Positions 38,252 through 63,357 of a stretch of 64,000 nucleotides of DNA are shown here, piece after piece (position 1 is the first letter of the stretch; the number at the start of each line of letters is the position of its first letter). A program made the translations under genes and the position numbers. Origin of the DNA: Escherichia coli (GTDB taxonomy: Bacteria > Pseudomonadota > Gammaproteobacteria > Enterobacterales > Enterobacteriaceae); the NCBI RefSeq assembly GCF_024223415.1, contig NZ_CP100502.1; one strand, 5' to 3'. Under the pieces are notes generated by a model. That model had not been told where the DNA came from, did not search any database, and was given only the letters and a program-made list of their open reading frames with translations.

Positions 38252-38381
38252 AACGCTCCGCGCCGAATCGATCCATGATGGATGACTCGACGATTTATGA
38301 ATCGAACGTACCGGCGCTTGTCCCTGAAACAGTTCCCGGCCCTCGTCCGGATAACCTGCAATTCAGACAGGCACATGTGCC
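38252..38381 (-). promoter_or_regulatory. Conserved ~130-bp leader element, copy 1 (traG-traH intergenic); contains perfect palindrome ggcacatgtgcc (38370-38381)
   Basis: Shares aacgctccgcgcNNaaNcgatccatgatgg and ccctcgtccRgaYaaYcYgcaRttcWgacaggca blocks with 62171-62292 and 63233-63357. Confidence 0.6.
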
Positions 38382-38437
38382 CGTACACTCTTGTATCTTA
38401 CTGAGTATATCAGAATTTATGTAAATTCAAATATCCT

Positions 38438-39022
38438 CTATGCCTCTTTGTTGTATTTTCCGTCAAGTATGAGCCGGGTACCATCGTAATGCATGATCAG
38501 GGCATCAAGGTACGCCGGTTTGAATTTCTTGCCGAGCCTATCTCTGGCCAGAAATGATAAACAATGATTATGTGTCATTATTACTATGTTCCTTTTATGA
38601 GATTCTCTTGCGATTGATTCAAGCGTCTTATAAAGATCATTATTGCAGTCTGATAAACTGTCCATAACGACGGGTTCTTTACCGGAGAAGAATTTTGCAG
38701 TTTGTATGGTTCTTACCGCATTGCTGGAGTAAATATCATATTCACTGAAGATTGTTGCGAACTTAATACCTTCCTGCTGTGCTTTCTCTGTACCGGTAAT
38801 AGTGATTCCGCTTTTATCCGAATAGCATGGCATATCTGAACGGTCGCAACGTTCTCCATGGCGGAAAAGGAAAATAACGGTGTTATCAGCATTAATTTCT
38901 TTTGCCTGTTCCAGGGTGATATCGGGAAGCGAGCTTTTTGCTTTTGTCACTGCCGCTACCAGGAAAACAGAAAATAAAAGAATGAATGCTGTTTTTGAAT
39001 AAGAAGAACGTGGTTTCATCAT
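38438..39022 (-). CDS. traG: TraG-like exported histidine-phosphatase-superfamily protein (RHGE motif), 194 aa
   Basis: Signal peptide; LFRHGERCDRS matches the RHG catalytic motif of the phosphoglycerate-mutase/histidine-phosphatase fold; positional. Confidence 0.6.
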   Translation of the reverse strand: MMKPRSSYSKTAFILLFSVFLVAAVTKAKSSLPDITLEQAKEINADNTVIFLFRHGERCDRSDMPCYSDKSGITITGTEKAQQEGIKFATIFSEYDIYSSNAVRTIQTAKFFSGKEPVVMDSLSDCNNDLYKTLESIARESHKRNIVIMTHNHCLSFLARDRLGKKFKPAYLDALIMHYDGTRLILDGKYNKEA

Positions 39023-39081
39023 GTTATTTAAACTGAATATAAAAATACCCCCGGGTTTAGTGCCGGGGGCGGGGACAGTAA

Positions 39082-40284
39082 TCAGAAAGTGAACTGAAGT
39101 TGTGCCATTGCACCGTAATCGTGGTCAGTTCCTACCAGGCCGGAAACATCGATATGTACGACGTCAAATGGAGAGATACCAACGCCAGCGGTGAAGGCGC
39201 TTCCGGAGTTTGATGCCATGTTCTGACGATAACCGGCACGCAATTGCGCCCATTTCCATGCGTTAAATTCAGCACCAACACTTGCAAACTGACGTTTGCT
39301 GTCAGAAGTGAAGCCACTGGCAGGAGTCAGATCAATGTCAAGAGCAGTGGTAAACAGGTCATTATGCCAGGATACACCGGCGGTTGCCTGCGGACGAACT
39401 TTGAAGGTTTCTTTAAAGCCATTGACGACTTTAGTATCAATACTGCGTGGAATGATGTTCTGGGCAACAAGACCGACAGTCCAGTTGTCATTCAGGTCTG
39501 TATAAGCACCAATATCGGCGTTGAATCCGTTTTTCGTGTTGTGGTACTTGTCACCGTCAAAATCGTCTTTGTCGTAATCACGAACCGTTACGTTGTAGTT
39601 AAACAGGTCCACACGCTGATATTTTGGTGTGACGCCAAGAGACCATTTTTGTCCGGCCGTTTCCAGTTCTTTGGCAAATGAAATTCCGACGTCGGTAATT
39701 ACAGCTGCACGCCCGAATGCGCGTGAGGTCAGGGCATTCTTATCGACGTCGGTAATTGTTCCATTGGCAACTTTGTCCAGATAATCCAGGTCTGCATCGT
39801 TTACTTTTCCGTTTACGCTGACAGTTCCGTAAGACTTGACCATAAGGGCAAACGGCAGAGTGTCATTTGCCATGGCTGCTACAGCTGATACACCTACCTG
39901 AGCATCTGCATTGATATTGCGGAATTCCTGCAGACGATGTTTAAGATTTGCCGCTGCCTGTTGTACGCCATGCTGGTTATCTACAGCACTGTCAAACAAA
40001 TCCCAGTCATCTTTAACATCATCAGCTTTATTTGATACATCATCAGGATCAGCAACTTGTGCCCCAACAGACGGCAGAAGAAGGCTGAAATCATCATTGC
40101 TGTTGTGCTTTGTCAGTAAAGCCGGGTTTGCCAGAGGTGCCACACCATAATGGGAAGATGCTACCCCGGTACCACCCATTGCATCGTTACGCGCTTCAAA
40201 ATATGACGTCGCTGCTGCAGCGTTAAAGGAAAATAATACAGCAGATGCAATGATGGTGCGGGTAATATGATTTTTCTTCATCAT
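39082..40284 (-). CDS. traF: TraF-like outer-membrane beta-barrel protein, 400 aa
   Basis: Signal peptide; alternating beta-strand pattern; C-terminal Phe (..QLQFTF). Confidence 0.65.
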   Translation of the reverse strand: MMKKNHITRTIIASAVLFSFNAAAATSYFEARNDAMGGTGVASSHYGVAPLANPALLTKHNSNDDFSLLLPSVGAQVADPDDVSNKADDVKDDWDLFDSAVDNQHGVQQAAANLKHRLQEFRNINADAQVGVSAVAAMANDTLPFALMVKSYGTVSVNGKVNDADLDYLDKVANGTITDVDKNALTSRAFGRAAVITDVGISFAKELETAGQKWSLGVTPKYQRVDLFNYNVTVRDYDKDDFDGDKYHNTKNGFNADIGAYTDLNDNWTVGLVAQNIIPRSIDTKVVNGFKETFKVRPQATAGVSWHNDLFTTALDIDLTPASGFTSDSKRQFASVGAEFNAWKWAQLRAGYRQNMASNSGSAFTAGVGISPFDVVHIDVSGLVGTDHDYGAMAQLQFTF

Positions 40285-40368
40285 TTAATTTCCTGTTTAT
40301 CAGAATTTAGACAAAACAACGCTATGACACGGATGTGCCGTAATTTTTACTTTGGTACTATCTGGTAT

Positions 40369-40635
40369 TTACCAGGGTAATAAAGACGTATTAAATAAGC
40401 TAACAGGTAGTATTTGCCCTGTAATAAGGTTCCCGGCAAGGCCAGGTCTCAACGTGACGCGTCGCAAAGACATTGTTGTATTCTGCCTGGTTGTATATTC
40501 AGTTAACCATTTTCTTTTTTCATCGTTCAGAAGTGTTGGTGATAATGATAGTGCCGGATATATTACAGAGCCATTTATTTCTTTTTTCTGTCTCAATATT
40601 ACCCCGCAATATTCTCTTTTCGTGTTTCCTGCGAA
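40369..40635 (-). pseudogene. traE: traE-like gene, 3' portion (last 88 codons), separated from its 5' portion by IS2
   Basis: In frame with 41972..42529 once IS2 and one copy of the GGGGA duplication are removed; ORF-track entry 40369..40677 begins inside IS2. Confidence 0.7.
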
Positions 40636-40651
40636 GGGGATGGATTTGCCC

Positions 40652-61594: not shown

Positions 61595-61620
61595 GAAAAA
61601 AGCCCGGCCCGAAGGCCGGG
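61595..61620 (-). terminator. Rho-independent terminator downstream of the NusG-like gene
   Basis: Stem cccggcc / ggccggg with loop cgaa, followed by T-run on the minus strand. Confidence 0.7.
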
Positions 61621-61629
61621 AAATACTGG

Positions 61630-62184
61630 CTATGGGATGTTTACAAGGCGCTCCATAAAGCCGTGATGTTCGGCATTTGATACCAGTTCCAGGAGCAGGG
61701 ATATCCTCGACTCAGGCTGGAGAGTATTTTCCATTCTGAGGAGATACTGATATTGTGCTTTTGTCAGCCATATGCTGGAAGCCGCATTCAGCTCTTCCCT
61801 GGCTCCCGGATTTAGCACAGGGTCCGGGTAAATCTTCATTAATCCATCAACAATATCTTTATTGACGGGTTTTATTTCACCGCCAAACTTCACGAAATCA
61901 ATGAAGGCGCTATGGCGACGTAATGCCGATACTGGTTGAATGTCAAAATTAGCCAGAATAAAAAAGTACCCTGGAAAAATAGCGAATATTCTTTCACGGT
62001 AACAGCACCTGGAGTCTGCCCGTCTTATCTTTCTTGTTATTAATGGAGTCCATGGTACGACGTTTTGCTCATTCAGCCATGAGAATAAAGATTCTCTGTT
62101 TTTGCCGGCTGTATTATATTGCGCAAGATACCAGTTCCGGTTATTCAGGTGTTCTATATTCACGAAGTTCAACGCTCCGCGCAA
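61630..62184 (-). CDS. RfaH/NusG-family transcription antiterminator paralog (R64 traB position), ~180 aa; true start probably downstream of the TTG at 62184
   Basis: NGN-domain pattern NWYLAQ...PWTPLITRKIRR...IFAIFPGYFFI...FVKFG parallels RfaH (SWYLLY...PMITLEKIVRG...LFPNYLFV...FVRFG) as I recall it. Confidence 0.65.
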   Translation of the reverse strand: MRGALNFVNIEHLNNRNWYLAQYNTAGKNRESLFSWLNEQNVVPWTPLITRKIRRADSRCCYRERIFAIFPGYFFILANFDIQPVSALRRHSAFIDFVKFGGEIKPVNKDIVDGLMKIYPDPVLNPGAREELNAASSIWLTKAQYQYLLRMENTLQPESRISLLLELVSNAEHHGFMERLVNIP

Positions 62185-62292
62185 AACCGATCCATGATGG
62201 ACGATTTTGCGATGTCAGGCGAATATGCTAAATCATATGTCTGAAGCAGTGTCCAGCCCATATCTGGATAAACTGCAGTTCTGACAGGCATA
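62171..62292 (-). promoter_or_regulatory. Conserved leader element, copy 2 (overlaps the annotated start of the NusG-like gene)
   Basis: See 38252-38381. Confidence 0.55.
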
Positions 62293-62604
62293 TAACCAGC
62301 AGACTCTAGTACGTTCTGTATCGGTGATTTGGCGAACTCACAGATAAAGAACGGCTAAGCACTAATATCAGCAATACAGTGGCACAGTATTGTGATACGC
62401 GAAATAAAACATCAGCACATCAGTTCAGAGTAAGGTCGCCATATATCGGGCATGAGCCAGATACAAATAACTGGGACACCGTCTGAAGTGATTTGCTTTA
62501 TTAAAGTAACTTGTGCTTGGTGTTTATGTTTATCAATTTGGGATCGCCTGTAAAGTGCAAAATGCAATTTCCATGAAAGTGTCCCCTTTAATGGGGACAC
62601 CTGT

Positions 62605-62913
62605 TCACATTTTTTCGTTTTCTTTAGCTGTATTGCTAATCATGAAAACGAAAGTTCGCATCAGCACAGCAGAGCGAAGTGCATCATATCCTTCCAGATT
62701 TAAATTCTTCAGGCTTCGCTTCAGGTAGGTTCGTACCGTTTCGGGAGAAAGCCGACAGTTCTGAGCAATGGCGTCGTAAGGAACACCCATTGCGTAAAAA
62801 ACGCAGACTTTAAGCTGGTTTGTTGATAGCTCGGGAAACATGCCTTCCAACAGAGTGATGGCCGGGAGTTTCTGTATCAGTTGAGGTGACATAGCAAAGG
62901 TCTCCGATGACAA
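62605..62913 (-). CDS. LuxR/GerE-type HTH transcription regulator, ~100 aa (R64 traA position)
   Basis: C-terminal HTH LSTNQLKVCVFYAMGVPYDAIAQNCRLSPETVRTYLKRSLKNL. Confidence 0.6.
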   Translation of the reverse strand: MSSETFAMSPQLIQKLPAITLLEGMFPELSTNQLKVCVFYAMGVPYDAIAQNCRLSPETVRTYLKRSLKNLNLEGYDALRSAVLMRTFVFMISNTAKENEKM

Positions 62914-63232
62914 CTAAAAACGCTATCACCGAGTTCCTACGCTCATTGGTGATAGCCCAGACGGGGGTAGGAATACCGGCGTCATCGGAAACCGGCCAGG
63001 CTAATGCCTGCCCCGCCTGAGCTACCATAGATGACGACAAGAAATACAAGTTCCTGTCTTTATGGTATGGCAAAAAACGACGCCAAATGAAGAAATTAAC
63101 TTCTGCGCCGACGATGACTACGCGGGTTCCTACGCCCGATCACAGTTTTGCCTGTGACCAGTAAAGGGTACTTAGTATAACGCACCGAGTCAACTAACAG
63201 CTTAAAAAACATACAAAAAAGCGTCAAAACTT

Positions 63233-63357
63233 AACGCTCCGCGCCGAAGCGATCCAGGCATGATGCTTCTGCTTTGTGGCGTTCGAACATGCTGGTCCAT
63301 ATGCACGAAACGGTGTCTGACCCTCGTCCAGACAATCCGCAGTTCTGACGAACATAT
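63233..63357 (-). promoter_or_regulatory. Conserved leader element, copy 3 (upstream of the LuxR-type gene)
   Basis: See 38252-38381. Confidence 0.55.

Follow-up and report, generated by a model that had tools for sequence, protein, structure and literature searches.

What is the element that stands three times ahead of minus-strand transfer genes in this Escherichia coli plasmid, and which factor might read it? The stretch that we analysed (the window) comprises 64,000 nucleotides (nt) of contig NZ_CP100502.1 and is an IncI1 resistance plasmid of the R64/ColIb-P9 type. Megablast of positions 61500-64000 returned IncI1 plasmids at 100% identity, in which the genes of this region are annotated as a NusG-family protein and TraA, and Rfam places a repZ pseudoknot at the end of the window. 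The three copies lie ahead of traH, traB and traA (Table 1); in ColIb-P9 the equivalent of copy 1 is found between the histidine phosphatase gene (traG) and traH. Our analysis suggests, with a probability of about 55%, that the element is an ops-like loading site for the RfaH paralog TraB inside a structured leader RNA, a reading drawn from sequence comparison and structure prediction.

The copies are paralogs, appear as family D3 among the repeats of the window, and share a mean column identity of 72–79% across an alignment of ~150 nt. Their motif GCGRAGCGTT is found exactly three times in the 64 kb, where 0.20 occurrences are expected, and none of 100 shuffles reached three. We built a covariance model from the three copies, which by construction score 152–161 bits against it, and scanned the window with filters off; no fourth copy was found, the next best match scored 10.8 bits, and the opposite strand of the three loci scored ~9 bits. 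The three-copy element of a preliminary description of this DNA is thus borne out by alignment, repeat listing and scan. Both sequence blocks named there are present in the copies, as is the 12-bp palindrome GGCACATGTGCC of copy 1, at 38370-38381. The extent of ~130 bp given there was too short, since the cores measure ~150 nt and are preceded on the 5′ side by an ACAAGAG linker and an upstream hairpin. A mobile repeat, for example a miniature inverted-repeat transposable element, was also considered and is argued against by orthologous positions, fixed orientation and compensatory changes.

Rather than a linear motif, the 130 nt are for the most part a sense-strand hairpin structure, which covariation supports. 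Folded singly, each copy gives two hairpins, P1, which is long and lies 5′, and P2, which is shorter and lies 3′, and the order of the whole element is (P0 hairpin)–ACAAGAG–P1–UUCG–P2–GCG(G/A)AGCGUU, where the last part is the 3′ tail. RNAalifold on the three copies predicted 44 pairs, 11 of them with compensatory changes. Diverged relatives were drawn from PLSDB, from genome contigs (a scan that gave seven loci) and from metagenomes (a pattern scan with mostly chance matches, 10 of 80 loci being real). The covariation set of 13 distinct sequences from ~11 plasmid lineages was aligned to the model; this alignment with homologous regions of other plasmids, which the preliminary description had proposed, recovered both the element and its hairpins in diverged relatives. 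Across the 13 sequences 87.4% of cells in paired columns were paired, against 31–40% when partners were slid by 1–3 columns. Changes on both sides occurred in 32 of the 44 pairs, and 0 of 500 shuffles reached any of five measures. Because this alignment had been fitted to the model, the analysis was repeated with a plain MAFFT alignment and RNAalifold, which again recovered P1 and P2, with 15 of 28 pairs compensatory. Moreover, paired cells held 57 G:U against 9 A:C combinations, an excess indicating that the sense strand (transcript or non-template DNA) is the folded one; together with the covariation, it argues that the element is transcribed.

Besides the tail, the GGAT/ATCC apex of P2 and the UUCG after P1 are fixed across lineages, and the stems vary. 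The upstream block of the preliminary description, GUCWGAAYUGC, turned out to be an internal loop of P1 that is conserved only among IncI1 and IncK copies, and of P1 itself lineages L005 and L016 retain no more than a stub. No Rfam family covers any copy, either at gathering score or at E <= 5. A close variant of copy 1 is found in the traH leader of a metagenome contig (L031, 3574-3800 (-); TraH 96.7% identical), where the base of P1 is kept by a double change from U:A to C:G. In that variant CCGCC, 4 nt before ACAAGAG, replaces the sequence of the window, and the hairpin after the tail is missing. A leader peptide was tried as another explanation of the conserved sequence: in copies 1 and 2 a mini open reading frame (MDRFGAER and stop) terminates at the tail. 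It was rejected, since its ATG is lost in copy 3 and in L011 and longer reading frames are out of frame between copies.

The tail, GCG(G/A)AGC(G/C)TT, is the same in every lineage, whereas the stems vary freely; sequence-specific recognition would be expected to leave such a pattern. We take ops to be GGCGGTAGCGTG; compared with this sequence, the tail GCGGAGCGT equals ops GCGGTAGCGT less one base, a T. In work by Zuber et al. from 2018 (cited in PMC11880322), the ops non-template strand is reported to fold into a small hairpin from which G5 and T6 flip out. For the tail as DNA, together with the GC before it, the prediction is a GC stem of 3–4 bp closed by a GNA triloop, at -2.1 kcal/mol versus -0.9 for ops, and a CGC-GNA-GCG mini-hairpin was also predicted by RNAalifold on the independent alignment. 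The sequence GCGAAGC, a classic and very stable DNA mini-hairpin, is the tail form of Citrobacter-type plasmids. The 12-nt ops consensus GGCGGTAGnnTG has no exact match on the window's non-template strand, and with one mismatch allowed the sole match is an unrelated site at 39379; with no canonical ops in the window, host RfaH would not be served. The earlier judgement that the core loosely resembles ops without matching it is therefore right in that no exact ops is present, and it underrated how close the tail comes.

The element stands directly 5′ of every TraB homolog examined. These come from ~11 diverged lineages of MPF_I plasmids, in which TraB can be as little as ~47% identical: IncI1 and IncK, plasmids of Citrobacter, Leclercia, Enterobacter, Mixta, C. 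amalonaticus and Klebsiella sp., two Salmonella diarizonae plasmids and one E. coli IncI1-typed plasmid. From tail to traB start codon the distance is 3–13 nt across lineages, and in the window the element ends 8 nt before the probable GTG start at 62163. The conserved MNIE N-terminus of the TraB homologs points to this start, and the homolog alignment sets it there, not at TTG 62184; hence the overlap of the element with the NusG-like gene, as first described, is probably an annotation artefact. In all lineages traC comes next after traB. The gene arrays behind the element are co-directional over 20–45 kb, and in Citrobacter-type plasmids traB to trbC form a single co-directional array of ~44 kb. 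Extra copies ahead of traH and traA were seen only in IncI1 and IncK-type plasmids.

TraB is an RfaH paralog, not RfaH itself. It matches the Pfam NusG/NGN family (E 2.8e-4), and residues 11-167 match the RfaH equivalog TIGR01955 with E 7.7e-11 and 42.2 bits, below the cut-off of 144.5. A profile of TraB homologs aligns with E. coli RfaH over its full length (residues 2-149) and matches the IncX3 PrfaH structure 9IK0 (E 4e-13); a LoaP profile matches TraB weakly. The AlphaFold model of TraB has an NGN domain of moderate confidence and an all-helical C-terminal domain with low predicted local distance difference test (pLDDT) scores, and its best Foldseek matches were 5OND (RfaH-ops), 9IK0 (PrfaH) and 8PFG (autoinhibited RfaH). 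The RfaH-type NGN protein of the preliminary description is confirmed on these grounds as a full-length RfaH relative. The RfaH contact residues, which we take to be K10, H20, R23 and R73, appear as T, W, E/N and S in aligned TraB. In previous studies traB and traC were found to be essential positive regulators of transfer genes (PMC10286972, PMC5801416), and R64 TraB is named only as a homolog required for transfer in the IncX3 study (PMC11880322). A 2020 survey stated that plasmid NusG paralogs await experimental study, and no description of a cis target of TraB was found in the literature searched.

According to the reading that we prefer, when RNA polymerase transcribes the tail, the non-template DNA of the bubble would form CGC-GNA-GCG, an ops hairpin with one fewer flipped-out base. 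TraB would recognise this mini-hairpin, load onto the polymerase and remain there, and Rho-dependent and intrinsic termination would be suppressed; by analogy with RfaH, TraB may also aid ribosome recruitment. The operons served would be traB-traC-pil, the genes from traH onward (type IV secretion system genes) and the traA unit. With one copy only 8 nt ahead of the start codon of traB itself, TraB would act in an autocatalytic circuit, with positive feedback. P2 lies directly 5′ of the tail and ends at its first base, and hence could act as a pause-stabilising hairpin. The context is compatible with antitermination, with long co-directional arrays, repeats after traC that resemble Rho entry sites, and a terminator-like hairpin after copy 3. 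A recruitment site for the plasmid's NusG paralog, as suggested in the preliminary description, is thereby supported at the level of a candidate, by the linkage to traB, the RfaH-like nature of TraB and the ops-like tail. The repeats after traC deserve an observation of their own. Two C-rich, G-poor repeats of ~110 nt, 93% identical and with C/G ratios of 2.1–2.4, lie at 59864-59971 and 60578-60685 (-), directly after traC and after an open reading frame for a lipoprotein of 183 amino acids, ahead of the pil operon. Their excess of C over G is among the strongest of any window on that strand, and they resemble sites of Rho entry (rut).

Several points weigh against this reading. An ops-type signal needs only ~12 nt, which leaves ~140–200 nt of selected RNA structure unexplained. 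Copy 1 is possibly an internal site rather than a promoter-proximal one, and distant plasmids yielded no copy other than that of traB. The stem of the mini-hairpin is invariant, and so lies outside the reach of covariation testing; no G follows the tail U, so that the consensus pause signal is unmatched downstream. Furthermore, the tail holds GGAG just before traB, and its conservation there may partly reflect translation initiation. Neither copy 1 nor the lineages with GCGAAGCGTT fit that account, which rules out the tail as merely the Shine-Dalgarno sequence of traB. Since an ops-type site does not need a structure of 150–200 nt, the hairpins must have a further role; the options are RNA-directed recruitment (LoaP-like, possibly via TraC), RNA stability and translational control of traB.

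Comparison with known systems helps to place the element. With ops/RfaH of E. coli (5OND, 8PEN) it shares the letters GCGG-AGCGT and a factor that is a full-length relative of RfaH; it would also share a small hairpin motif with a GC stem, here predicted, in a probably transcribed leader ahead of long operons acquired by horizontal transfer. The IncI tail differs in lacking the loop T and the G after the final T, and in sitting within ~150–200 nt of conserved RNA structure. The plasmid-borne PrfaH of IncX3 is likewise an RfaH paralog needed for conjugation, and it binds a non-template-strand hairpin in the 5′ untranslated region of its own gene, a few tens of nt before the start codon (PMC11880322). 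However, the PrfaH site is of the TCGGGGTCATCCGAG type with a 6-nt loop and is present in single copy, no large RNA structure is reported there, and the IncI site is a candidate only. JUMPstart (RF01707) resembles the element as a conserved leader whose ops-type signal is preceded or overlapped by a hairpin, whereas the IncI element is much larger, would serve a different factor and has no match to that family even at the relaxed threshold. The LoaP leader hairpin, HK022 put and EAR are structured leader RNAs that, as proposed for the IncI element, start long operons and support processive antitermination, but they have no sequence or Rfam relationship to the IncI element, and put and EAR act without a NusG paralog. 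We found no paper describing the IncI element in the literature searched. It is apparently undescribed, and is best filed as a leader of the ops/JUMPstart kind serving the IncI RfaH paralog TraB.

Among the other explanations, a cis-acting RNA leader independent of TraB survives best, and we still consider it unlikely. Such a leader might be a 5′ stabiliser, a translational operator that masks traB's GGAG and start codon, or an attenuator whose tail has two alternative partners, one upstream and one in the arm of a terminator downstream. It agrees with the conservation of the hairpins, with the ability of the copy 2 tail to pair with the GUG start region, with the hairpins downstream of copies 1 and 3, whose 5′ arm is the tail itself, and with preliminary hfq effects on traA and traBC mentioned in PMC5801416. 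However, the downstream hairpins lie in different registers, are not significant against shuffles and are lost in L031. On these same grounds a conserved terminator or attenuator hairpin after the tail, P3, was rejected, and is possible for copy 3 only, where a terminator-like hairpin and U-run occupy 63218-63240 (-). A cis-acting leader also leaves the invariance of 10 nt, the resemblance to ops and the strict linkage to an RfaH paralog unexplained.

The role of RNA could be more direct. LoaP binds a leader RNA hairpin, and similarly TraB, TraC or both may read the folded nascent RNA (P2 and tail, possibly P1), after which the RNA-protein complex would modify the polymerase. Strong selection on RNA structure, the G:U asymmetry in favour of the sense strand, the constant pairing of TraB with TraC, a protein without known fold or function, and the weak LoaP match of TraB are all consistent with this. 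On the other hand, the closest relatives with a solved mechanism, RfaH and IncX3 PrfaH, read non-template DNA, the most conserved piece is the ops-like tail and not the hairpins, and P1 can shrink to a stub; we therefore hold such RNA-directed recruitment to be rather improbable. Finally, it is very improbable that the element acts as double-stranded DNA, as an operator or promoter module for TraC or for TraA (LuxR-type, the alternative of the preliminary description): inverted repeats do stand 5′ of copies 2 and 3, and a 54-bp region upstream of predicted promoters mediates the activation of traB expression by TraA (PMC5801416), but that region is not obviously inside the element, the complete IncK plasmid p67_75 (L002 and L017) keeps copies before traB and traH while lacking traA, traA was not found in the examined stretches of L005, L011, L013, L014 and L016, and stem sequences are replaced wholesale with pairing kept and many G:U, which would be mismatches in a DNA palindrome.

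Upstream of the core, loading by TraB may not be the only function of the leader. The P0 hairpin is present in 11 lineages, ~20–25 nt 5′ of the conserved ACAAGAG linker; its stems are unrelated in sequence, and its loops always hold (C)CGCC(A). Constrained folding of P0 beats shuffles (p <= 0.01) in 8 of the 11. In several lineages it is far more stable on the sense strand (-15.3 versus -1.4 kcal/mol in Salmonella P2, with 7 G:U pairs), which predicts that transcription starts 5′ of P0 for the traA and traB copies. A promoter search near the copies gave several weak sigma-70-like candidates, none decisive. A conserved module was also observed 5′ of P0, at ~63440-63600 (-) and at the equivalent places in L011, L013, L014, L016 and L005, all of them places at which the replicon borders on traB or traA. 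In this module a palindrome, CAGAATAATATTCTG, is followed by TAGATC...CGATCGT, with two Dam sites within a weak sigma-70-like promoter, which in the window reads TTTGTA-17-TAGAAT.

The P0 loop (C)CGCCA(A) equals the loop hexamer of the plasmid's own Inc/CopA-type antisense RNA, a pattern seen in 10 lineages, and an Inc/CopA-like hairpin lies 0.5–2.2 kb 5′ of the element on the same strand in every lineage. In ColIb-P9 the hexamer of Inc RNA is complementary to UUGGCG of repZ mRNA loop I. Unlike Inc RNA, P0 has stems unrelated to the Inc stem and is part of the tra leader, not a free antisense RNA. A composite leader that ties transfer to replication control, in which P0 and Inc RNA compete for UUGGCG of rep mRNA or free rep leader RNA remodels the tra leader, is a doubtful proposal. 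By either route, copy-number sensing would be coupled to TraB loading. The rep leader RNA should be abundant in a new transconjugant, as the remodelling route would have it, and the coupling could explain why transfer is transiently derepressed in new transconjugants and why copy number rises 2-fold in Hft mutants without change in repZ mRNA (PMC4288162). Two intramolecular partners for P0 were discarded: a pseudoknot of its loop with UYGGCG before the tail (a match of 4–6 bp in some lineages, absent in others) and a UUGGCG within the traB coding sequence, which is not conserved.

Table 1. Coordinates of the element copies, their parts and associated genes in the window
Feature	Position	Strand	Remarks
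Copy 1, core	38241..38390	-	between traG stop (38438) and traH start (38043); 161 bits
Copy 1, parts	P1 ~38304-38390; P2 38261-38292; tail 38252-38261	-	
Copy 1, tail GCGGAGCGTT	38252..38261	-	invariant, ops-like; with preceding GC can form CGC-GGA-GCG mini-hairpin
Copy 1, ACAAGAG linker	38388-38394	-	
Copy 1, P0-like hairpin	38403..38438	-	uncertain: no CGCC loop, compensatory change gives no support
Copy 2, core	62160..62306	-	directly 5′ of traB; 152 bits
Copy 2, parts	P1 ~62221-62306; P2 62180-62211; tail 62171-62180	-	
Copy 2, tail GCGGAGCGTT	62171..62180	-	8 nt before traB start codon
Copy 2, ACTAGAG linker	62304-62310	-	
Copy 2, P0	62312..62352	-	loop GUUCGCCAAA, CGCCAA 62329-62334; z = -3.7
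Copy 3, core	63222..63371	-	head of traA transcription unit; 154 bits
Copy 3, parts	P1 ~63285-63371; P2 63242-63273; tail 63233-63242	-	
Copy 3, tail GCGGAGCGTT	63233..63242	-	followed by terminator-like hairpin and U-run
Copy 3, ACAAGAG linker	63369-63375	-	
Copy 3, P0	63384..63413	-	11-bp perfect stem, loop CCCGCCAA, CGCCAA 63395-63400; z = -10.3
Tail site, non-template-strand DNA			GGCGCGGAGCGTTAA
Inc RNA hairpin	63893-63943	-	
traH	37585..38043	-	first gene 3′ of copy 1; head of type IV secretion gene array
traC	60693..61376	-	always after traB; no family assignment
traB	61630..62163	-	full-length RfaH-family NusG paralog; proposed trans factor
traA	62605..62892	-	95 amino acids, sigma-70 region 4 / LuxR-type helix-turn-helix; not consistently linked to element (PMC5801416)

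As for the neighbouring genes, the model of TraC is confident (pLDDT 86.6), yet fold and family searches with it were uninformative. Copy 3 does stand 5′ of the LuxR-type gene, as first described, but the gap to traA is ~330 nt and a C4 antisense RNA cassette lies between. The C4 RNA (RF01695) is matched at 62945-63032 (-) with 77.5 bits against a gathering threshold of 45, and its c4-a1b1 targets at 63119-63171 (-) with 32.9 bits, below threshold (E 3.8e-6). By coordinate offset, the 270-bp Hft locus of pESBL maps to 62915-63184 (-) of the window and is this P1-type C4 cassette. Transposon insertions in this "superspreader" locus raise traA expression ~50-fold and transfer ~20-fold, by a mechanism that its authors called elusive (PMC4288162); no paper linking Hft to C4 was found in the literature searched. 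A C4 cassette also precedes a traA homolog in the Citrobacter plasmid L003 (~48330-48560).

Elsewhere in the window, the adjacent repeat families D4, D6, D7, D8 and D19 recur ~2.9 kb apart, at 1631-1916 and 4522-4812 (+). Together they make up a segment of ~300 nt, rich in GC and in hairpins, that is present twice in the presumed leading region. Rfam also matched sok antitoxin RNA and AgrB at 14197-14354 (+) and 14979-15066 (-), and a second AgrB-like repeat is family D17 (15035-15067, 15222-15254).

IncI-complex plasmids are major carriers of extended-spectrum beta-lactamase and other resistance genes, and their transfer depends on traB and traC. If our reading of the element is true, it supplies a defined site of 10 nt, with its surrounding RNA fold, that is open to direct mutation. 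How NusG paralogs read DNA could also be studied on the tail, as a natural specificity variant of ops that is one base shorter in the loop. Combined with C4 at Hft and with the rut-like repeats, it would give a concrete circuit that runs from TraA, the activator of traB, to the loading of TraB at three leaders and on to feedback. Such a TraA–TraB circuit could explain the "superspreader" mutants.

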